A stretch of 64,000 nucleotides of DNA from an uncultured Candidatus Rokubacteria bacterium (GCA_963805625.1 CAWDVE010000017.1:224001-288000), one strand, 5' to 3'; shown: positions 24,947 through 42,194, counted from the stretch's first letter. Made by a program: numbers and translations. Notes: a model not told the origin generated them from the letters alone.

Positions 24947-26740
<1,794 letters not shown>

Positions 26741-26751
26741 GGCGCGCCGCG

Positions 26752-27393
26752 ATGACACAGCCGGTCAACCACACGTCCCCAGAAGATGTCCCACGGGAGA
26801 TCGTCAAGGTGCGGAAGAAGTCCGTCCTCCGCGAGTACACCGAGGCGATTCTCGTCGCGGTGCTGCTCGCGCTGCTCATCCGGACGTTCGTCGTTCAGGC
26901 GTTCAAGATCCCCTCCGGCTCGATGATCCCGACCCTCCTGGTGGGCGATCACATCCTGGTCAACAAGTTCGTCTACCGGTTCACGGCTCCGAAGCGGGGC
27001 GACGTCATCGTCTTCAAGTACCCGGTGGACGAGTCGCGCGACTTCATCAAGCGGATCATCGCGGTCGGCGGCGAGGACCTTAACATCAAGGACCAGAAGA
27101 TCTACGTGAACTGCAAGCCCCCGGAGCCGAGCTGCCGCCCGATCGACGACCCGTGGGGGAAGTGGGAGGAGCGCTTCGGCGTCAGCGAGAGCACGTCGGT
27201 GAAGGTGCCGCCGGACTCCTACTTCGTGATGGGCGACAACCGGAACAACAGCCAGGACAGCCGCTACTGGGGCTTCGTCAAGCGCGACAAGATCAAGGGC
27301 CGAGCCTTCCTCATTTATTGGTCCTGGGACTCGGAGAAAGACTCCATCCCGGAGCGTGTCCGGTGGAGCCGGCTGGGCAAGCTCATCTACTAG
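26752..27393 (+). CDS. lepB: Signal peptidase I
   Basis: IPSGSMIPTL, FIKRII, GDNRNNSQDSRYWG; follows lepA. Confidence 0.96.
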   Translation: MTQPVNHTSPEDVPREIVKVRKKSVLREYTEAILVAVLLALLIRTFVVQAFKIPSGSMIPTLLVGDHILVNKFVYRFTAPKRGDVIVFKYPVDESRDFIKRIIAVGGEDLNIKDQKIYVNCKPPEPSCRPIDDPWGKWEERFGVSESTSVKVPPDSYFVMGDNRNNSQDSRYWGFVKRDKIKGRAFLIYWSWDSEKDSIPERVRWSRLGKLIY

Positions 27394-31437: not shown

Positions 31438-32538
31438 ATGGCCCAGCGCGACTACTACGAGATCCTGGGCGTCCAGCGGGACGCGAGCGACGCGGAGATC
31501 AAGAAGGCGTTCCGGCAGCTCGCGCTCAAGCACCATCCCGATCGGAACCCGGGCGATGCCCACGCCGAGGAGCGGTTCAAGGTCATCAACGAGGCCTACG
31601 CGGTCCTCTCGGACGGGGACCGTCGCGCCCAGTACGACCGCTACGGCCGGGTCGACCTCCCGCCGGGCGGGGCGGACTTCGGCGGGCTCGAAGACCTCTT
31701 CGGGGACCTCTTCGAGGGTTTCTTCGGCGGCCAGCGCGGAGGGCGACGCGGTCGCGCGCGGTCGGGAGACGACCTCCGCTACGACCTCGAGATCACGCTC
31801 GAAGAGGCGGCGCAGGGGCTCGAGACGCGGCTACAGATCCCGCGGCTCGAGGTCTGCGAGACCTGCCACGGGAGCGGGGCGGAGCCGGGATCGGGGCGGA
31901 CCCAGTGCCCCAACTGCAAGGGGCGCGGCCAGCTGCGCTACCAGCAGGGCTTTCTCACGGTCGCCCGTACCTGTGCCCAGTGCGGCGGCGAGGGCCAGAT
32001 CATCAAGAGCCCATGCAAGACCTGCTCAGGCGAGGGCCGCGTGGCGCAGGAGCGGACCCTCAAGGTGCGCATCCCGCCCGGTGTCGACGAGGGCGCCCAG
32101 ATGCGCATCGCGGGCGAGGGGGAAGGGGGCCTGGCCGGCGGCCCGGCGGGCGATCTCTATGTCGTCCTCCACGTGCGCCAGCACGCCTTCTTCACGCGCC
32201 AGGGCAACGAGCTCTACTGTGCGCTCCCGCTCACCTTCGCCCAGGCTGCCCTCGGGGCGGAGGTGGACGTGCCGATCCTGAATGGCGTCGCGCAGCTCAA
32301 GGTGCCGGCCGGCAGCCAGAACGGCGACGTGCTGCGGCTGCGCGGAAAGGGAATGCCCGGCCTCCACGGGCGCGGCCGCGGGGACGCGTGCTACACCGTG
32401 GTGGTGGAGGTTCCGCGGAAGCTCACCGGGAAGCAGCGGGAGCTTCTCGAGGAGTACCAGCGCATCTCCTCCGGCGAGGAGCAGGGCCCGCTCGTCGGCG
32501 GCTTCCTCGAATCGCTGAAGAAGCTCTTCGGCGGCTGA
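31438..32538 (+). CDS. dnaJ: Chaperone DnaJ
   Basis: J-domain HPD, G/F region, four CxxCxGxG motifs. Confidence 0.97.
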
Positions 32539-32689
32539 GCGGAAACGGCCCATCGGCCGTGGACGGCCGGTCGCCCTGCAAACGCCGCCTCGGTGCCGGC
32601 GGTGGTGGATCTCGACCGGAGCGGGCTCGGCGAGGTCGCCGCCGTCTGTGGAGGAACGTGCGTCGCGCCGCCAAGCCCTGCTCGAGGCC

Positions 32690-32719
32690 TTGACAGTTGG
32701 CGCGATGCCTTCGTAGCCT
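32690..32719 (+). promoter_or_regulatory. Putative sigma70 promoter at the start of the island
   Basis: TTGACA-N18-TAGCCT. Confidence 0.4.
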
Positions 32720-32767
32720 GCGGACTGTGAGCACGACAACTACCGGTGGCAACTTCTAGAGGTGCGC

Positions 32768-33463
32768 ATGCCCCCGGCGATGATCAGCGTCGTCATTCCC
32801 GTGTACAACGCCGAGTCGTACCTGGCCCAGGCGCTGGAGAGCGTGGCGCGTCAGACATGCACGACGATCGAGATCCTGGTCATAGACGACGGCTCGACAG
32901 ACCGCAGCGAAGAGGTAGCACAAGGCTATCCAGATTCGCGCATCCGCGTTGTCCGTCAACCGAACGGCGGCCCTGCCGCCGCCCGGAATCACGGCGTCCG
33001 CCTTGCACGTGGCGACTTTCTGGCCTTCCTGGACGCCGATGACCTCTGGGAGCCGCTCAAGCTGGAAGTGCAGTTGGAGGCACTGCGGGCGCGTCCGGAC
33101 GCGGCGATGGCGTTCGGGGAGCTGATTCAGGTTCGGGACGCAGTCGATCCGCGGACCGGTGAGCTCACCCCGTGCGGCGACGCGATGCGCGCACATTCGG
33201 TGGGGACGCTTCTCATTGGCGCCGCGGACTTCCACCGGGTCGGATACTTCGACACGCGATGGCGGGTGGGTGAGTTCGTCGACTGGTACGCGCGCGCGCG
33301 AGACCTGGGCCTCCAAGAGGTAATGGTGCCCCGGGTGCTTCTCAAACGGCGCCTGCACGCTGACAACCTCGGTGTGCGTGAACGCGCGGCGCGGCAGGAG
33401 TACGCGCGGGTGATCGCTTCCGCCGTGGTGCGCCGGCGCCATCCCGCCGCTTCCGGTGGTTGA
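32768..33463 (+). CDS. Glycosyltransferase family 2
   Basis: ISVVIPVYNA, IDDGSTD, AARNHG, FLDADD. Confidence 0.92.
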   Translation: MPPAMISVVIPVYNAESYLAQALESVARQTCTTIEILVIDDGSTDRSEEVAQGYPDSRIRVVRQPNGGPAAARNHGVRLARGDFLAFLDADDLWEPLKLEVQLEALRARPDAAMAFGELIQVRDAVDPRTGELTPCGDAMRAHSVGTLLIGAADFHRVGYFDTRWRVGEFVDWYARARDLGLQEVMVPRVLLKRRLHADNLGVRERAARQEYARVIASAVVRRRHPAASGG

Positions 33464-33496
33464 CTCTCGAACACGCCGTCTTCCGGGGCTTGCTCA

Positions 33497-34351
33497 TTGA
33501 CATTCTCTCGCCCTCCCGCGAGAGTGCCGCTAGCCACCCCGGCTTCCGGCGGCCTCGAGCCGGCCCGACCGGTCGGATCGGGGGTAAGGGTTGGATCGCC
33601 ATGGCTGCGCGGCTCGCTCGTGACGCTCGCGCTCTTCGGCGCCGTGGTGATGATGTGGGTCAGCCTGGCCAGGCCACTGACGCCCAGCCGGGCGTGCCTG
33701 GCGCTCCTCGCGGCACTCTTCCTGGCGTCGGCGCTGCCAGTCTTGGTGCTGCGCTGGGTCCAGCCTCCGACCACGGCGTTCATGATCTGGACGCGTCGTC
33801 GACGCCGCGGCCCGGAGACGTCGGTCCATCATGAATGGGTGTCCTACGAGGCCGTGTCTCCATCCATGCGGCTCGCCGCGATCGGCGCCGAGGATGCTCA
33901 CTTCGTGTCACACGCCGGCTTCGATTGGCCCAGCATCCGACGGGCTGTCCGATACAACCGTGAAGGCGGTCCACGGCGCGGCGCGAGCACGATCACTCAG
34001 CAGGTCGCCAAGAACCTGTTTCTCTGGCCGGGGCGTTCCTATCTCCGCAAGGGCCTGGAAGCGTACTTCACGGTGCTCATCGAGGCCATGTGGCCGAAGC
34101 GCCGGATTCTCGAGGTATACCTCAACATCGCGCAGTTCGGGCCGGACGTCTTTGGGGTCGGTGCGGCCTCGCGCGTGCTTCTCGGCAAGGAGGTCTCGGA
34201 CCTCGGCCCCCAAAACGCAGCGCTGCTGGCGGCCGCGCTTCCGAGCCCCGGCCGGTACGACGTTCGTCGTCCGTCCCCGGCCGTCCGCCTTCGCCAGGTG
34301 ATGATCATGGACAGCGTTCGGCGCCTGGACCTGGACCCCGATCACCTCTGA
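33497..34351 (+). CDS. mtgA: Monofunctional peptidoglycan transglycosylase (GT51)
   Basis: AEDAHF..HAGFD, GASTITQQVAKNLFL, RKGLEA, KRRILEVYLN; start uncertain. Confidence 0.9.
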   Translation: MTFSRPPARVPLATPASGGLEPARPVGSGVRVGSPWLRGSLVTLALFGAVVMMWVSLARPLTPSRACLALLAALFLASALPVLVLRWVQPPTTAFMIWTRRRRRGPETSVHHEWVSYEAVSPSMRLAAIGAEDAHFVSHAGFDWPSIRRAVRYNREGGPRRGASTITQQVAKNLFLWPGRSYLRKGLEAYFTVLIEAMWPKRRILEVYLNIAQFGPDVFGVGAASRVLLGKEVSDLGPQNAALLAAALPSPGRYDVRRPSPAVRLRQVMIMDSVRRLDLDPDHL

Positions 34352-34385
34352 GCCGCGGCCAGAGTGCCACCCAGAGAGGATAGAG

Positions 34386-34832
34386 ATGGACACTCGCTAC
34401 GGTGTCGACGAAAGCCGGGTCGTGTACGAGCTTCTTGAGAGGGAGATCGTCGTCGTCAACCTCGACACCGGGCACTACTACATCTTGGACGACACGGCGG
34501 CCGTGATCTGGAGGGAGCTCGTGGACGGGTCCACGCCGACCGAGGTGGTGCACGCGCTGAGCGTTCGGCATCCGGCCGACGGTGAGACGATCCGAGATGC
34601 GGTCCGGAGCTTCGTCGAGCAACTCACCGGGGAAGGGCTTCTCACTGCGTCGGACCGCGCGGCTCCCCGGCAGGCCGAGGCCGGCGCTGCGCAGATGCTG
34701 GATCTCGGCCCGAGCTTCATGCCCCCGATCCTAAATCGCTACACCGACATGGCGAAGCTGATCCAGATGGATCCGATCCACGACTTCGACGAGACCGGCT
34801 GGCCACGCCGCCCTATCGCCCGCGATCGATGA
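34386..34832 (+). CDS. PqqD/RRE-family protein with a C-terminal leader-like tail
   Basis: EIVVVNLDTGHYYILDDTAAVIWREL...FVEQLTGEGLL (RRE pattern), then FMPPILNRYTDM...DPIHDFDETGWP. Confidence 0.85.
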   Translation: MDTRYGVDESRVVYELLEREIVVVNLDTGHYYILDDTAAVIWRELVDGSTPTEVVHALSVRHPADGETIRDAVRSFVEQLTGEGLLTASDRAAPRQAEAGAAQMLDLGPSFMPPILNRYTDMAKLIQMDPIHDFDETGWPRRPIARDR

Positions 34833-35884
34833 CCGGCCGACCTTTGGTCGAGGAGGCGCTGGAGCGCTTCTTCGACGAGGCCGAGGCGTCCTTCGAAAAG
34901 GCGGTCAACCGCTCCGCGGAAAGGGTAGAGCGCCACGTGCAGGTGGCTGGTCGTCCGATGCGCCTTCAGTTCGCCGGCGCGACACTGGCGGACGCGATGA
35001 TGCCCGCGCTGAGGCATCTCGAGGTCCCGGCTGCGACCCCGTCGCTGACGGCGTTCATCTGGGACCTGCGCTCCACCGAGGTTGTCCTTGGTCCTCCGCC
35101 ATGGGCGGCGTTGCCGTACTTCGAACGCGGCAACATGCGGGGCTTCCGGGATGACCGCTTTGTCCTCGTCTACGATCGTCGCACGCGCGCCTTCAGCGCC
35201 GTCGACAATCTCCAGGGCCGAGCCGTTCAGTGGATGGACGACGCGGCATGTGTGCCGTTCTCCGAGCGCGCCGCACCCCTCCGGCACGTCCTCCAGGGCT
35301 GGCTCCAGCGGGAGGGGCTGTTCGTCGCCCATGCATCGGCAGTCGGTCGGGCCTCCGGTGGGGTCGCGGTGAGTGGCCGGACCGGCTCCGGCAAGTCGAC
35401 GACGGCGGCGCTGTGCTTGGGGTCCGACCTTGGATATCTCGGGGACGACAACATCCTGATCTCGGCCGGCGGTGAGCCGTGCGCGTACAGCCTCTACGGA
35501 GTGGCGAAGCTCAGCCGCGCAACGCTGGCGTGGTTCCCCGAGTTGTCCGCCGCCGTGGCCAATCCGGAACGGCTCGATGTCGAGAAGGCGCTGATCTTTC
35601 TTGGAGACGCCTATCGGCCACGGATGCTGCGGGAGTTTCCGCTCCGTGCAATCCTCCTTCCGCGCGTCGTCGACGGGCGCGAAACGCGCCTCCGGCAGGT
35701 GTCGGGGAACACCGCCTTCCGGACGCTGGCCCCGGATACCCTCTTGACGGTCCTGGGAAACCCCACGCTGACGGCGCGAGGCCTGCGACGGTTGGTCGAC
35801 GCTCTGCCATGCTACGAGCTTACGCTGGGCCACGACCTCGCCCGGATCCCTGGTGTCATTGACGATCTGCTCTCGCATGCTTGA
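34829..35884 (+). CDS. HPr kinase-related P-loop kinase
   Basis: HASAV, GRTGSGKST (Walker A), YLGDDNILI; ATGA overlap with the RRE gene. Confidence 0.82.
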   Translation: MTGRPLVEEALERFFDEAEASFEKAVNRSAERVERHVQVAGRPMRLQFAGATLADAMMPALRHLEVPAATPSLTAFIWDLRSTEVVLGPPPWAALPYFERGNMRGFRDDRFVLVYDRRTRAFSAVDNLQGRAVQWMDDAACVPFSERAAPLRHVLQGWLQREGLFVAHASAVGRASGGVAVSGRTGSGKSTTAALCLGSDLGYLGDDNILISAGGEPCAYSLYGVAKLSRATLAWFPELSAAVANPERLDVEKALIFLGDAYRPRMLREFPLRAILLPRVVDGRETRLRQVSGNTAFRTLAPDTLLTVLGNPTLTARGLRRLVDALPCYELTLGHDLARIPGVIDDLLSHA

Positions 35885-35901
35885 GGCGGCGCGCAGCGAG
35901 C

Positions 35902-36732
35902 ATGACTGATCCGTTCAGCGCTCTCGATCCACGGCCGACCACCCGTCAGGAGCTGATGCTGACCGCGGCCCTGCGGCAGGGTGAGCCAGCGCTGGCCGCG
36001 TGGGAGGCGTGGGTCTCCGATCTAGACCCCGAACGGCTCGAGGAGCAGCTCGAGCCGGATTCCCAGTGGCTCATGCCTCTCATCTACTGGAATCTACGTC
36101 GGGACGTGGAGCACCCCGTGCTCGCTCGTTGCCGGAACGTCTACCTTCACAACTGGTACAAGAACAATGCGATGCTCCATGCGCTGGCGTCGGCGCTCGG
36201 GTCGGGGGGACTGGCCGCGGTCAAGCCGGTGCTGCTGAAGGGGGCGGCCATGGCCGTCCGCTACTACGACACCCCCGGCGCCAGGCCCATCGCGACCATC
36301 GACGCGTGGATCCCCTTCGCGGCCGATGGCGCGTCCAGGTGGCTGGACCCGCTGCGCGACATGCTCACCCTCCACGACGTGCCCTTCGCCGCGGGACCTA
36401 CGGGCGGCCTCCTGAACCGGGCGGACACCGTAACCTTCATGGGCGCGACGTGCACCGTGATGAGCGCCGCCGACCAACTTCTCCACATCTGCTTTCATCG
36501 CCGGTCCTGGGATCCCCGAACCCGGTTGGTCTGGGTGGCCGACGCGGTGCAGGTGCTTCGGCGGTCGCCCGATCTGGACTGGGACACCGCCCTGGCGGCC
36601 GCTTCCCAGCTCGGGCTGGATCAGACGCTGTCAGCCACGCTCGACTACCTCGGTCGCTTCGGTGTGCCCGTCAGACTTCGGTCAGCGACGCGCATGCGCC
36701 CACGTCGCGCCGTCGGCCGGTCTGGCCCATGA
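35902..36732 (+). CDS. Nucleotidyltransferase family protein (NTP_transf_5-like), degenerate active site
   Basis: LLKGAAMA..YY....RP, DQLLHIC.H, WVAD; ATID in place of DxD. Confidence 0.75.
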   Translation: MTDPFSALDPRPTTRQELMLTAALRQGEPALAAWEAWVSDLDPERLEEQLEPDSQWLMPLIYWNLRRDVEHPVLARCRNVYLHNWYKNNAMLHALASALGSGGLAAVKPVLLKGAAMAVRYYDTPGARPIATIDAWIPFAADGASRWLDPLRDMLTLHDVPFAAGPTGGLLNRADTVTFMGATCTVMSAADQLLHICFHRRSWDPRTRLVWVADAVQVLRRSPDLDWDTALAAASQLGLDQTLSATLDYLGRFGVPVRLRSATRMRPRRAVGRSGP

Positions 36733-37409
36733 GCACGATCGTCGGGGTCATGGATCGTCCCGGCTTCCAGGCGAACACCGACAACCTCGTGCTGGTCGAG
36801 CCTGCGCGCTCCCGACTGACGTGGATTCCTCGCGACCTCTGGTGCGAGACGCTCCGAGCGCGGATCAATCGCGCCTTCAGTCGCGGCGGCCACGAGCTGC
36901 TCGTCGCTGCGCTGGGGGCGCACGGCTTCCACGTCACGGCCAGTCTCGTGCTGTCCCGGGAGGCCACGGAGGAGGCGCTCGCTGATGCCGTGGTGGTGGT
37001 CCCTGTGCCCTGCCGGATGACCTTCTCCTATCCCCTGACGCCGTGCGCGCGCATCGAGGATGGCAGCAAGCAAGTGGTCTTCAACCCGCCGGCCGAGGTT
37101 CTGCGGGGCGAGCGGATTCACCAATGGATGGGCGCCCGCGGCACGGATCTTCACCGGATCGAGAGGCAGAAGATCCTCGTGCGCCGCTTGCTGGAGAAGG
37201 GATTCGAGTTTCGACGAGCCCTGGCCCGTCCCGCCTGGTACTCCATCAGCGGGGCGGACTGTCTGCCCGATCTGGCGCGGGTGCGGCCTGACTGGCAGTT
37301 CGAGACCATCACTGAGCTCTCGCCCGTCTCCATCGAGGGACAGATGGTCTTGGTGAGGGGCGGGCGGGACCGCCACGACCACGACCCCCCCGGGCCGTCG
37401 CAGCCTTGA
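36729..37409 (+). CDS. LCP (LytR-CpsA-Psr)-like protein, minimal, no obvious TM anchor
   Basis: NTDNLVLV, IPRDLW, RINRAFSRGG, DLHRIERQ; ATGA overlap. Confidence 0.7.
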   Translation: MSTIVGVMDRPGFQANTDNLVLVEPARSRLTWIPRDLWCETLRARINRAFSRGGHELLVAALGAHGFHVTASLVLSREATEEALADAVVVVPVPCRMTFSYPLTPCARIEDGSKQVVFNPPAEVLRGERIHQWMGARGTDLHRIERQKILVRRLLEKGFEFRRALARPAWYSISGADCLPDLARVRPDWQFETITELSPVSIEGQMVLVRGGRDRHDHDPPGPSQP

Positions 37410-39163
37410 CTCCTCGATTCGTGGACTGCTGGCCGACCGCCGAGCAGCGGCTCCTCCTGCGCGCCACGCTGCTCGAGGGAACGTCAGCCGTCACCGCCTG
37501 GCGCGAGTGGAGGCAGCGAGTCGACCTTGACGGGATCGACGAGGCATCCGGCCGCCTGCTGCCGCAGCTTGCCCGCAACCTCTCGCTGCTCGGGGTGGAG
37601 GATCCGATTCTGCCGCGGCTTCGCGGTGTGCGGCGCCGCGTGTGGACCCAGAACACGGAGCGCCTCATCGAGACCGCCTCCCTGGTGCGGATGCTCGAGG
37701 AGGCCGGCGTCGCCACGATGGTCCTGAAGGGCGCCGCGCTGGCGACCCTCTACTACCCGGACCGCGGGCTCCGCCCGATGACGGACACCGATGTGCTCGT
37801 GCCGACCCGGCAAGTGCGGCCCGTGATGGCGCTCCTCATGGAAAGGGGCTGGACCCCCGTGGGATGGATCCCGGAGGCGCGGCGTCCCGAGCTGACTCTC
37901 GGCGTGCATCATGCGCACGAGTTCCGGCACCCCAGCGGCCAGAGTCTGGATCTGCACTGGCACGTCCTGTGGGAGTGCGGCGCGCCGGATGCCGACGACG
38001 ACTTCTGGGCCGCGGCCGTCCCCCTCGACCTGCGCGGCACTCTCACGCGGACCCTTTGCCCGACGGACCAGTTGCTGCATGTATGCGTTCACGGCGCGCA
38101 CTGGAGCGGGGCCCCCTCCCTCCGATGGGCTGCGGATGCGCACATGATCCTTCAGCGCCAGGGGATCAGCATCGACTGGGACCGACTGGTGGACCAGTCG
38201 TGTCGCCGCGGCTTGGTGCTGCCGATGCGCGCGACGCTGTCGCTGCTCGCGGAGATTCTGGAGGCCCCGGTGCCGCCGGGCGTCCTGGCGGCCCTTCGCG
38301 GGATCGCGGTGCCGTGGACTCAGTGCGTCGAGTATGCGACGGGGACCCGCGCGGCCCGACGACCGAGCATCGCGCTGCTCAATCGCGCGTGCCACCACCA
38401 TCGGCTGTCCGTGGGACAGACATTCGCCCGTTCTCTGTTCGGGTTCCCGCGATACCTCCGTCTGAGCTACGAGCAGGAGAGCTTCTGGGGGCTCGCCAGC
38501 GTGATGAGGAGAAAGATTCGACGACGAATCGCTGCTCGGCTGGGCCGTCCCGATCGCCCGGTTCCTCAACCCGAGGCCCAGGATGTGGGGCGCTCATCGG
38601 GCTCCGGTCAGGAATCAGCACCGTCATGGCTCGACAAGTCCCCCTGGATGCCCGTGGATGCGCCCATTCGATCCATTCCGTCGGCGCGCAGCCGAGTCCT
38701 CTTACTGGAGGTCATCGCGCAGTTCGACGTCGAGGCGACCCCGCGCTACCGACCCGTTCCGACCCGGCGCGGCACGACCACCTGGTGCAACATCTTCGTC
38801 TGGGACGTCACTCGCGCTCTAGGCGCAGAGGTTCCGCACTGCGTGGACGAGGCCGGGCGGTCGGTTCCGGTGGGGCAGGGGAGGGAGCTGACGGCCAACG
38901 GCACGCTGCGGTGGCTGAACACGCACGGCTTGGCCGACGGGTGGCGCGAGGAGGACGCGGCCGGCGCGGTGCGGGCTGCCGAGGCAGGGTCACCTGCCCT
39001 GGCAATCTGGCACAATCCGTTCGGCCACGGTCATGTGGGGATCGTCGTTCCGTGTCAGGACGACGGCGTCCACATCGCTCAGGCGGGCACCGTCTGCTTC
39101 AGCAGCCGGCCGCTGGCTCACGGTTTCGGGGACCGGCCAGCGCGGTTCTTCGTGCACGCCTGA
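37406..39163 (+). CDS. Nucleotidyltransferase (NTP_transf_5-like) fused to a C-terminal Cys-His papain/CHAP-like domain
   Basis: VLKGAALA..YY...LRPMTDTDVLV, DLHW; C-terminal TWCNIFV...GHGHVGIV...IAQAG. Confidence 0.78.
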   Translation: MTPRFVDCWPTAEQRLLLRATLLEGTSAVTAWREWRQRVDLDGIDEASGRLLPQLARNLSLLGVEDPILPRLRGVRRRVWTQNTERLIETASLVRMLEEAGVATMVLKGAALATLYYPDRGLRPMTDTDVLVPTRQVRPVMALLMERGWTPVGWIPEARRPELTLGVHHAHEFRHPSGQSLDLHWHVLWECGAPDADDDFWAAAVPLDLRGTLTRTLCPTDQLLHVCVHGAHWSGAPSLRWAADAHMILQRQGISIDWDRLVDQSCRRGLVLPMRATLSLLAEILEAPVPPGVLAALRGIAVPWTQCVEYATGTRAARRPSIALLNRACHHHRLSVGQTFARSLFGFPRYLRLSYEQESFWGLASVMRRKIRRRIAARLGRPDRPVPQPEAQDVGRSSGSGQESAPSWLDKSPWMPVDAPIRSIPSARSRVLLLEVIAQFDVEATPRYRPVPTRRGTTTWCNIFVWDVTRALGAEVPHCVDEAGRSVPVGQGRELTANGTLRWLNTHGLADGWREEDAAGAVRAAEAGSPALAIWHNPFGHGHVGIVVPCQDDGVHIAQAGTVCFSSRPLAHGFGDRPARFFVHA

Positions 39164-39267
39164 GGGGCCTCCGGCCGTTGCGCGTGTCGTCGAGGTAGCA
39201 TGCAACATCCTGCTCTCGAGCGGCACCTTCCTGCAGGCCCCCTCCTGCCGGCAAAAGGAGCCGGGTG

Positions 39268-40233
39268 ATGTCATCGCTCGTCGCCGAAGTCGACGAGAGG
39301 CCGGAGTCTCATCGCGGGCTCCTGGCGCGAATCGATCTTGTCGTGCTCGTCCATCGCGACGCACCGCACGTCGTGATGCGGTCGCTGCGCGCGCTGGCCG
39401 TTTCGATGGGAACGAACTGGACCGGCCGGATCGCGCTCGTACAGAACGCGTCTCCGGCAGCCACCGTCATGGCCGCGCAGTCCGAGGTCGTGCGTTCGTT
39501 TCCATCCGCCCGCATGGTCTCCGTCTCGTCGCGACGGAACCTCGGATACGCGGCTGGCGTGAATCTCGGCGTGGCGCACACGACCGCGCCCTACGTCGGC
39601 GTCTTCAATCCCGACGGCGTCACCCGGCCGGAGACCGTGGCGCGACTTGCGGGCGCGCTGGAACACGGTCGTGACGCCTTCATGGCTGGCGCGCGGATTG
39701 TGTCGACGGTAGTCTTGGAAGAGCCGCCTGCTTGTGCCCCGCGACGGGTTGCCTGGCTCCCTGGAGCGGCGATGCTGTTCCGACGAGAGTGGTTCCTCGA
39801 CATCGGCGGTTTCGATCCCGGCTTCTTCATGTACTGCGAGGACGTCGACCTTTCTCGGCGGGCACGCGCCCGCGGGTGGAAACTGGTGGTCGCACCCGAT
39901 GCCGTGTTCTTCCACGCGCGTGAGTTCGGCCAGCTCGAGTCACTTCGCCGGATTCGGATGTGGACCGTCTCCAACACGAGCCTCGTGTACCAGTACGGCA
40001 CGCCGCGGTGGCGAGCAATGGCTCGGCTGGCTCGTCAACGAGCCGGATGGTTCCGCAACCTTGCCCGCAAGCGTCGAGGCTGGACGCTTGCGGGCGCGCT
40101 CGTCGGGTCGGCAGCCTGGCTGGTGTCGATTCCCCGGCTGGAGCATCGCCGGCGCCACCCGTGGGACGGAGCCGCGTTGTCGGACTGGCTCGCGAGGGCG
40201 ACCCGTCGTGCCCAGATCACTGATCTCCAGTGA
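39268..40233 (+). CDS. Glycosyltransferase family 2 (WbbL-like)
   Basis: NLGYAAGVNLG, NPD, GGFDPGFFMYCEDVDLSRR; AAGGAG SD. Confidence 0.88.
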   Translation: MSSLVAEVDERPESHRGLLARIDLVVLVHRDAPHVVMRSLRALAVSMGTNWTGRIALVQNASPAATVMAAQSEVVRSFPSARMVSVSSRRNLGYAAGVNLGVAHTTAPYVGVFNPDGVTRPETVARLAGALEHGRDAFMAGARIVSTVVLEEPPACAPRRVAWLPGAAMLFRREWFLDIGGFDPGFFMYCEDVDLSRRARARGWKLVVAPDAVFFHAREFGQLESLRRIRMWTVSNTSLVYQYGTPRWRAMARLARQRAGWFRNLARKRRGWTLAGALVGSAAWLVSIPRLEHRRRHPWDGAALSDWLARATRRAQITDLQ

Positions 40234-40539
40234 GGGCGTGCCTTGACCGCCCCAGTCTTCCGTCCGCGTCGAGCGAGCATGGCCGTTCACCGCCGCTGGG
40301 CGTACCCGCATGATGCTGGCACGGGCCGGACCGGGACGCTCACCGGCGGACGGACTTTGAACATCACCATCGTGACCATCGTGCAGACAGGGCAATCTCA
40401 ACCTCGATGCCCGGAACCAGCACGCCCTGGAAGCCGAGCATGGCACCCATCGCCATGACCGTCGGAAATGCAATCGGCAGCGCCTAGATGGCCGGGGCGC
40501 CGAGCTGTGCGCCCCACAGTCCGACCGCGACCATCGCCA

Positions 40540-40670
40540 ATACGCAGGCTGACGAACTGTGCCGGAGACAGTGCGGCGTGAAGTGCGTCGGTAGTTCCGG
40601 AGCCTGAGAACCGCGTGAGAAGGTGCGCTGAATCACGCCCGGATGGAACGGCTCGCCAGTGCCGCCCGAG
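40540..40670 (-). pseudogene. Tyrosine recombinase/integrase C-terminal remnant
   Basis: GEPFHPGVIQRTF...LPTHFTPHCLRHS (HxLRH box); no intact ORF. Confidence 0.6.
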
Positions 40671-40888
40671 ACGCCAGACCCTGGCGTAAGCTCCACAGCC
40701 AGCGGGCGTCGTCGCCATAGGCATCCGGACCGAGTCGGCACGAAAAGCTCGGCACGTGAGCGGCGAGCCGTGCAGCGAGCAGGCCCATGCCCTCTTCGGG
40801 TGGCGCCGCGGCGGCCTGGCCGATGGCGAACATTCCGTCTGGCGGGCATGAGCGGAACAGGGTTCCGCGCCACGCATCCAGCGCGGTC

Positions 40889-41143
40889 GGGATACGCGCC
40901 GAGGTGGTCGCCGAGCGCGCCGTGAAGGAGATGCGGCGCTACCTCGCGGCCGGCGTGCCGGTGGGTCCGCATCTCGCGGACCAGCTTCTCCTGCCGATGG
41001 CGCTGGCCGGGCACGGCGCGTTCCGGACCAGCGGGCTCTCTTCCCACAGCCGGACGAACCTCGCCGTGATCCGGATGTTCTCGCCGACCCGGATCTCGGT
41101 CGCTGGCGATCGGGACGACGTCCTCGTCGAGTTCGGTGGCTGA
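40889..41143 (+). pseudogene. rtcA: RNA 3'-terminal phosphate cyclase, C-terminal fragment
   Basis: GIRAEVVAERAVKEMRRYLA.GVPVGPHLADQLLLPMALAG...HSRTNLAVI; N-terminal part missing. Confidence 0.8.
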
Positions 41144-41159
41144 TCACGGTCACGCCACG

Positions 41160-42194
41160 TCAATACCCTCGATCCCGCTCGAAGAGATTGCGCAGCGGGG
41201 TGCCGGCCAGGTAGCGCGTGAGGTTGTCGCAGAAGAGGTCGACCACACGCTCGTTCTCGTCGAGGGCCGTGCTCATGCTGTGGGGTGTGACGAGCACGTT
41301 GGGCAGGTCCCAGAGCGGGCTGTCGGGGGGCAGGGGCTCGACGGTGAAGACGTCCAGGGCGGCACCGTCGAGGCGGCCGTTGCGAAGCGCCCGCACCAGT
41401 GCGGTCTCGTCCACGACCTGGCCGCGGGCCACGTTGATCAGCACGGCCCCGGGCTTCATCATGGCTAGCTCCGCCTCGCCGATCAGCTCCGTCGTGTCCT
41501 GGGTGAGGGGTACCGTCAGGGCGACGTAGTCGCTCTCGGCGAGCAGCCTCGGAAGCCCGTCCGGCGGATAGATCTCGCCCAGCCCGGGGCTCGCCGCCGC
41601 CGGCGTGCGCCGCGTCGCCACCACGCGCACGCCGAGGGCCCGCGCCAGGCGCTTCACCTCGTCTCCGACGCGACCCAGACCCACGACGCCCAGGGTCTTC
41701 CCGGGCAGGGTGTCCAGGGCAAACCGCTCCCATCGGTGCGCGCGCTGGTCGGCGAGGATCCGGGGCAGGCGCTTGGCGAAGTACAGCATTGCGAAGAGGA
41801 CGAACTCGGCCAGGGCGCGCGCGTGGATGCCGGCGGCGTTGGTGACGAGGACGTCCGCGTGGCCGAGATTCATGGCGTGAACGAATGCCGCGACGCCGGA
41901 GCTGGAGAATTGGATCCAGCGCAGGCGGGGAGCGCGTCGCGGCAGATCGTCGCTGCGAGGCCGGTAGGCATCGAACATCACCTCGGCCTCGGCGACGAGG
42001 CGGTCCCACTCGGCGTCCTGGTCCGGCGACCGCTTCATCGGGGCGGTGTGGTCGCCCGGGTAGCGCGGCTGGCCCACGAGGTCCGCCCGGTAAGTCACGG
42101 CGATCCTGAGATCGACCGACCGGATGCGGTCGACGAGATGCGGCTCGAGGAACGATGCGATCAACACGCGCACAGGCGGCGCGGGGACAGTCAT
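41160..42194 (-). CDS. D-2-hydroxyacid dehydrogenase
   Basis: GLGRVG, INVARGQVVDE, LDVFTVEPL, VTPHS. Confidence 0.92.
   Translation of the reverse strand: MTVPAPPVRVLIASFLEPHLVDRIRSVDLRIAVTYRADLVGQPRYPGDHTAPMKRSPDQDAEWDRLVAEAEVMFDAYRPRSDDLPRRAPRLRWIQFSSSGVAAFVHAMNLGHADVLVTNAAGIHARALAEFVLFAMLYFAKRLPRILADQRAHRWERFALDTLPGKTLGVVGLGRVGDEVKRLARALGVRVVATRRTPAAASPGLGEIYPPDGLPRLLAESDYVALTVPLTQDTTELIGEAELAMMKPGAVLINVARGQVVDETALVRALRNGRLDGAALDVFTVEPLPPDSPLWDLPNVLVTPHSMSTALDENERVVDLFCDNLTRYLAGTPLRNLFERDRGY

Follow-up and report, generated by a model that had tools for sequence, protein, structure and literature searches.

What can the tailoring machinery of peptides that are made ribosomally and then modified post-translationally (RiPPs) be for in a locus that holds no lasso cyclase? 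The question is raised by a cassette of eight genes at 32768..40233 in a 64,000-nucleotide window from an uncultured Candidatus Rokubacteria bacterium (GCA_963805625.1 CAWDVE010000017.1:224001-288000; "the window" is this whole stretch). In agreement with its preliminary description, Pfam and NCBIfam scans detected no asparagine-synthetase cyclase or B2 gene within the cassette. The cassette is an undescribed, widespread cousin of the linear polyphosphorylated peptide (LPP) systems with a built-in leader and a rare wall-type extension, and it has two layers. The core comprises a RiPP recognition element (RRE) protein with a C-terminal tail (RRE-tail), a kinase, family 2 glycosyltransferases (GT2s) and PF14907 transferases; to this are added rare wall-type accessories, namely MtgA, an LCP-like protein and an amidase-like domain.

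The eight genes are real and tightly packed. ORF analysis of the window confirmed the described array of mostly overlapping, co-oriented genes: all eight lie on the + strand, running from one GT2 to a second, with 4-nt overlaps at four of the seven junctions (34829-32, 35881-84, 36729-32 and 37406-09) and spacers of about 33, 34 and 101 nt at the other three. The same genes occur in the same order, with different flanking genes, in a second Rokubacteria metagenome-assembled genome (MAG; L008, L045 and G243 being one and the same), DNA identity being 78-79% across roughly 7.3 kb and protein identity about 75%. Several junctions are spanned by contigs from an independent metagenome run, X3. Chance or misassembly is ruled out, because the order recurs in another Rokubacteria MAG and the X3 contigs bridge the junctions. 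A sigma-70 promoter and a + strand terminator were looked for and neither was found; one RNA run gave short contigs across parts of the cassette, but DNA carry-over is possible, so these are no sign of transcription. Families were assigned by Pfam and NCBIfam profiles. Among those named in the preliminary description, PqqD and the NTP_transf_5-type PF14907 were recovered directly, the latter twice (E 2e-18 and 5e-44), while the weak calls (kinase, LCP and CHAP) fell under cut-off and were rescued by profile or fold searches.

The RRE-tail protein (34386..34832, +; 148 residues) carries the case for a built-in leader. Residues 1-90 are an RRE of the lasso B1 type (PF05402, PqqD, E 7e-16), whose nearest solved relatives are TbiB1, PbaB1, TfuB1 and LppB (structures 9x90 and 9x8z). 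A variable linker leads to the tail, residues 111-140 (34716..34805, +), which conservation in homologues marks as a candidate acceptor or docking site. The tail follows the pattern FxxPxLxxYxDM..L..DP..GWP and opens with a lasso-type RRE-recognition motif of the [Y/W/F]xxPxL form to which discrete RREs of lasso and LPP systems bind; it is like the lasso [Y/W]xxPxL motif, but here reads FxxPxL and stands in cis. P114, D129 and W139 are present in 100% of 140 aligned homologues and again in a second set of 118, both sets having been ranked by similarity that includes the tail, and the pattern of a broader survey of 247 tails presupposes P114 and D129. Between the window's protein and its orthologue, 2/30 residues of the tail are changed, against 28/90 of the RRE. 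The AlphaFold2 model reaches a pLDDT of 96 across residues 111-120, of which 116-119 form a strand; further on, pLDDT is about 50-60. This strand sits at the place where leaders of the lasso and LPP type add to the sheet of the RRE (PMC13381572), and the tail is predicted to dock in the cleft of its own RRE. Across 32400-41200 no complete FxxPxL...DP segment turned up apart from the tail; other motif matches lie inside other genes or shadow frames, and the motif search found no separate precursor in that interval. What had been described as an RRE-precursor fusion does carry a leader-like tail; judged by its conservation, however, this looks like a carrier or docking site and not a released, variable core. 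Among PF05402 proteins, 21% exceed the length of a discrete RRE without a second annotation (PMC12710340).

The RRE-tail family is broadly distributed. Clustering at 50% identity gives 181 clusters for matches with E up to 1e-30, and weaker matches include plain RREs. Atlas look-alikes are most frequent in Actinomycetota, Cyanobacteriota and Pseudomonadota, the core also lies on a plasmid of Crinalium epipsammum PCC 9333, and the full form was found in 1 of 49 genomes from other phyla. Viral contigs yielded no relative of the RRE-tail or LCP alignments, and a PHROGs search gave no match. Natural fusions join three RRE-tail units to a kinase, one such cluster having 8 members; the complete tail is internal in these proteins, which fits a retained primer. 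Fusions of a methyltransferase with the RRE-tail were also seen (P0024, P0026 and P0055), their tail sequence being near the window's subfamily.

What travels with the RRE-tail was surveyed in 102 loci: L009 (a paralogous locus of this genome), 20 loci within the phylum, the 80 best among 576 metagenome matches, and the Crinalium plasmid. Genes were called with our own codon model and profiles; three loci without an RRE call were dropped. A single-protein scan of genome contigs had returned one locus, so metagenomes supplied the wide sampling; their contigs were often short, and counts were made on the 35 loci with at least 5 kb downstream. Because selection was by the tail, and because some of the loci are related or nearly duplicate, they are not independent of one another. 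A kinase and a GT2 were present in 35/35 loci, PF14907 in 24/35, GT4 in 21/35 and ABC genes in 10/35, and the kinase was the next gene after the RRE-tail in 25/35. MtgA occurred in 2/35, AsnB-like genes in 1/35 and B2 in 0/35; single-query searches of the surveyed loci returned no B2 and two AsnB-like matches (L058 and L113). Five further loci fit the pattern, one of them without a kinase call, and kinase-GT2 fusions occur naturally. Among 53 other neighbours scanned, those resembling cassette members comprised sulfotransferases, epimerases, a deacetylase, a flippase, GT-C enzymes and radical SAM proteins; no SpI or other leader peptidase was found among these 53 or the eight genes. A gene that by its motifs appears to be a lepB-like signal peptidase gene lies 5.4 kb upstream (26611-27393) after a presumed lepA, in a housekeeping context. 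This survey supports a lasso-type RRE, kinase and nucleotidyltransferase machinery without cyclase or B2, the core being kept with glycosyltransferases across many genomes.

The kinase and one of the two PF14907 transferases have intact catalytic motifs. The HPrK-like kinase (34829..35884, +) scores under cut-off on the HprK-related kinase A/B cassette profiles TIGR04352 and TIGR04355 (22 and 37 bits versus 200; E 2e-9 for TIGR04355); its profile matches solved HPrK structures, and its catalytic set is intact (H168, Walker A K189, D206-D207). PMC9266682 gives this His-Lys-Asp-Asp motif for lasso kinases. The long PF14907 transferase (37406..39163, +), which is fused to a C-terminal papain-like domain, retains its DxD (D121, D123) and D176. 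In the shortened one (35881..36732, +; start at 35881 TTG or 35902 ATG) the first Asp of the DxD and part of the domain are lost, and the L045 orthologue is degenerate in the same way. PsmN activity requires its DxD (PMC6993621); because the first Asp is lost, the short transferase is likely inactive. Of the two nucleotidyltransferases originally described, both are present as PF14907 matches, but only one looks active. The first GT2 (32768..33463, +; PF00535 E 7e-39) is a soluble, single-domain core protein without a hydrophobic window, 39-41% identical to the GT2s of a paralogous cassette on contig C24; the second (39265..40233, +; PF00535 E 1e-8, PF13641 E 3e-11) has an orthologue in L008. 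The C24 cassette (L009:7479-13710; G000:C24, about 97.5-103.7 kb) is a second cyclase-free core in this genome, with kinase, PF14907, an RRE with a DPP-type tail, two GT2, GT4 and radical SAM genes.

Among published systems, LPP (lppA-K-B-S-D-N; Popov et al. 2026, PMC13381572) is the closest to this core. It too is cyclase-free, combines an RRE, an HprK-like kinase and an NTP transferase among glycosyltransferases, and uses a leader motif of YxxP type; LppB belongs with the nearest solved relatives of the RRE, and at family level the PsmN/LppN kind of NTP transferase corresponds to PF14907 with an intact DxD. The two differ in that the leader-like segment of the cassette is fused behind the RRE, whereas the LPP RRE is discrete and has a separate precursor; in that LPP has an archaeal-type SpI leader peptidase and an MsbA-like exporter, neither of which the cassette has; in an invariant Asp at the LPP phospho-Ser+3 position; and in the core GT2s and added wall-type accessories. 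The paeninodin and pseudomycoidin enzymes PadeK/ThcoK/PsmK and PsmN (PMC6993621 and PMC9266682) share the kinase His-Lys-Asp-Asp set, the transferase DxD and the lasso B1-type RRE fold, but those systems differ in that the cassette lacks cyclase, B2 and a C-terminal Ser acceptor and has two transferases, one degenerate. Fosfazinomycin (FzmZ, kinases, FzmU; PMC13622209) is alike in its RiPP-type scaffold, non-peptide product, kinases with a nucleotidyltransferase, and phosphorus-linked conjugate; it differs in an asparagine-synthetase-like enzyme, a separate 22-mer, phosphonate genes and kinases that act on a small molecule. Further comparison literature comprised PMC7470986, PMC11337229 and bioRxiv 10.1101/2023.03.08.531785. 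Neither the RRE-tail family nor this gene combination was described in the literature searched, which held few subscription papers; the supplements on LPP, RRE-Finder and RRE structures may list the family. Within that literature, novelty is confined to the tail fusion and the wall-type accessories, which are without precedent there. A cyclase-free family of RRE, HprK, NTase and exporter, LPP, was already published in 2026, which limits the earlier remark that no characterized pathway with this combination is known.

The accessories are interleaved with the core. MtgA (33497..34351, +; start at 33497 or 33620) scores 242 bits on TIGR02070 against a cut-off of 183 and has N-terminal membrane segments, with hydrophobic windows at residues 37-71; a second MtgA-like gene, 42% identical, lies on C24. 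The LCP-like protein (36729..37409, +) is below the Pfam cut-off (E 0.002), but its profile matches solved MsrR/TagV/TagU/TagT at E 6e-9 and up. Its D9, D18, R35, R137, R143 and R146 are conserved and line up with the two Mg-binding Asp and with several pyrophosphate-binding Arg in TagU/TagV/MsrR. It differs from these transferases in that its family lacks the N-terminal anchor, is sometimes fused to a papain-like domain and keeps one Arg of the R-x-R pair. The family (114 clusters, about 212-260 residues) starts at the catalytic domain; by hydropathy, the sole criterion applied, no membrane anchor was found on the window's protein, and a hydrophobic window in the first 60 residues is present in 5/114 homologues. 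A search of 301 genomes with the LCP alignment gave no carriers beyond the two known.

The papain-like domain (38633..39160, +; CHAP E 3e-4, under cut-off) has C461 and H543 in 13/13 aligned rows. Sequence searches against solved structures gave nothing useful; the best Foldseek matches are Tse1/Tae1 amidases of the CHAP, NlpC/P60 superfamily (E 4e-4, a modest TM of about 0.47, identity 16-21%), which share the predicted fold and the Cys-His pair. Unlike them, the domain follows a transferase or LCP in one fused chain, and no export signal was seen. It is fused to the transferase in 8/11 region homologues and to LCP instead in P0197, P0286, P0291 and P0292; in a third genome, the RRE orthologue HXJ83220.1 and an LCP-amidase fusion, HXJ83223.1, are three accession numbers apart, and the longest contig for either is 38,053 bases. 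A role as a B2-type leader peptidase was rejected on the grounds of the amidase-like fold and its absence from nearly all loci. Both the LCP and the amidase-like domain appear, from their sequences, to be cytoplasmic, which excludes the usual mode of acting on the wall.

How might these parts work together? We tentatively favor, as a possibility short of probable, a mechanism in which an uncleaved RRE-tail primer is phosphorylated and glycosylated and the LCP hands the glycan to a wall-related acceptor. The tail would fold back into the cleft of its own RRE and serve as the primer. By analogy with PsmK/PsmN and LppK, the kinase would phosphorylate the tail and the intact PF14907 enzyme would cap the phosphate with a sugar, which the GT2s might extend; PsmK and PsmN together yield Ser-phosphate-hexose (PMC6993621). 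In this rare variant the anchorless LCP could then move the phospho-glycan onto a wall-related acceptor, possibly peptidoglycan, and the amidase-like domain and MtgA could trim or polymerise a muropeptide acceptor; the LCP transfer is, with the choice of acceptor residue, the most speculative part. The glycan tailoring and export genes of related cassettes (sulfotransferases, epimerases, flippase and GT-C) count in favor of a primer, as do the LCP-amidase fusions and the proximity of one to the RRE in the third genome for the link to LCP.

For the equally speculative modified residue, D129 would be the candidate, otherwise T120 or H132. Position 120 is Ser/Thr in 200/247 tails, and T120 or T137 as an obligatory acceptor was rejected, neither being universal. 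H132 is missing in the DPP tail subtype. D129 lies 18 residues after F111, which equals the spacing from Tyr-16 to phospho-Ser+3 in LPP (PMC13381572). Two readings are allowed: Asp129 is the acceptor, or it is a phosphate mimic and the tail merely docks the kinase.

Several observations weigh against the glycosylated primer. All of its chemistry is inferred. At least one Ser/Thr at 119-140 is found in 227/247 distinct tails, leaving 20/247 with none, and 12 of 14 checked loci with such tails have an adjoining kinase with intact motifs. T120 may be a helix cap only, and the equal 18-residue spacing, seen in a single comparison, may be a coincidence. The known kinases are Ser-specific, LppK accepting neither S3T nor S3Y, and LppN showed no activity on expression of LPP (PMC13381572). 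This cassette contains no exporter. The link to cell-wall synthesis put forward in the preliminary description keeps the presence of wall-type genes and their conserved order in the second genome; it is weakened by the apparent cytoplasmic location of the LCP and the amidase-like domain and by their rarity, the LCP and papain-like domain occurring in 1/35 loci and the LCP in 2/251 genomes of the phylum. LCP homologues are spread more widely (114 clusters), and a single Arg of the R-x-R pair is kept. Finally, MtgA works outside the membrane.

A possible, if doubtful, alternative is that the RRE-tail is only a self-loaded scaffold or activator, its tail docking kinase, GT2s and transferase with D129 as phosphate mimic, while a sugar, a lipid-linked glycan or some other protein acts as the true acceptor. 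The tail is conserved above the RRE without an obligatory hydroxyl residue, it is internal and partly degenerate in the kinase fusions, the kinase is often fused to a GT2, and the flippase and GT-C neighbours suggest lipid-linked glycans. Set against this, the characterized kinase relatives (PadeK/ThcoK, PsmK and LppK) all phosphorylate peptides, and the large majority of tails keep a Ser/Thr.

It is rather doubtful that mtgA, the LCP gene and the amidase domain form a separate, co-inserted peptidoglycan module that contributes no pathway step, with the core acting as a primer or a scaffold. The accessories are missing from 34/35 loci, one transferase is degenerate, the amidase domain swaps partners, and the island looks acquired. 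Third-position GC is 0.78-0.85 in the cassette versus 0.92-0.95 in flanking housekeeping genes, and the cassette, which follows genes that appear from their motifs to be hrcA-grpE-dnaJ and precedes an rtcA fragment, was probably acquired. Downstream of the second-genome cassette lies an Amidase_2 gene without a hydrophobic segment (L008:15808-16503), no remnant of which was found in this genome. What speaks against mere passengers is that the accessories are interleaved with core genes via 4-nt overlaps, that most region homologues have the amidase domain and the intact transferase in one protein, and that two different genomic sites share the gene order with protein identity near 75%. To the right of the island, 40787-41143 is the C-terminal fragment of an RNA 3'-phosphate cyclase gene, and one contig of run X2 connects 40250 to 40811, skipping 560 bases.

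A true RiPP, in which the tail is phosphorylated and glycosylated and then leaves the protein as a linear glyco-phosphopeptide like LPP, after cleavage by a housekeeping protease or the papain-like domain, seems unlikely. The enzyme kit is that of LPP, ABC exporters accompany 10/35 loci, the papain-like Cys-His pair is intact, and fosfazinomycin provides a RiPP scaffold trimmed by housekeeping peptidases (PMC13622209). However, no conserved protease was seen in the surveyed loci, the tail is near-invariant and internal in kinase fusions, and the papain-like domain, which almost every locus lacks, is similar to peptidoglycan amidases.

Quite unlikely, in our estimate, is a bolder form of the glycosylated-primer proposal, in which the RRE-tail would be a soluble protein stand-in for undecaprenyl phosphate. 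The tail would bear a (poly)phosphate, possibly an acyl phosphate on Asp129, on which the PsmN-like enzyme and GT2s would build a glycan; a cytoplasmic LCP would transfer this to a peptidoglycan precursor, and MtgA would polymerise the product.

It is very improbable that the cassette serves the lasso cluster on contig C16 as a satellite that tailors its peptides: the genome does hold a single B2, a lasso cyclase and a pair of YxxPxL precursors, but the C16 cluster comes with an RRE and a kinase of its own, the tail would fill the cleft of the RRE studied here, and the cassette recurs without lasso genes nearby, so a cyclase and precursor set elsewhere fails as an explanation. The C16 cluster itself (L010:4486-9231; G000:C16, about 411.5-416.2 kb) holds RRE, B2, cyclase and HPrK-like kinase genes. 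Both of its YxxPxL precursors are fused to a Peptidase_S74 chaperone domain, with S-D-x-x-x-K, presumably the S74 self-cleavage site, after about 6-8 core residues. Three other loci of the genome carry related parts. L011:5453-18339 (G000:C12) has a discrete RRE, three DUF455 ferritin-like genes and HPrK-like kinase, 2OG oxygenase, AsnB-like, PhyH and methyltransferase genes; its opposite strand encodes PF14907 and an ABC transporter, and the whole looks like a separate RiPP-type cluster of unknown kind. L012:5739-9111 (G000:C13) has a discrete RRE together with an HPrK-like kinase and a radical SAM-PF14907 fusion. L013:5611-10072 (G000:C21) has an RRE-like protein with a long C-terminal part, a MauE-thioredoxin fusion, a kinase-like gene and an opposite-strand PF14907 gene.

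The RRE-tail offers a one-protein substrate for asking about the function of PsmN/LppN-type transferases and the reason for finding such kinases in polysaccharide loci. To our knowledge LCP enzymes have been seen nowhere but on the membrane's outer face, and an anchorless LCP family would be unusual for outer-face enzymes. If the tail is indeed a glycosylated primer, RiPP parts would have been turned into a glycan carrier. Should the stand-in for undecaprenyl phosphate prove true, the cassette would represent a protein-primed glycan assembly line that evolved from lasso-peptide parts and spread over many phyla.

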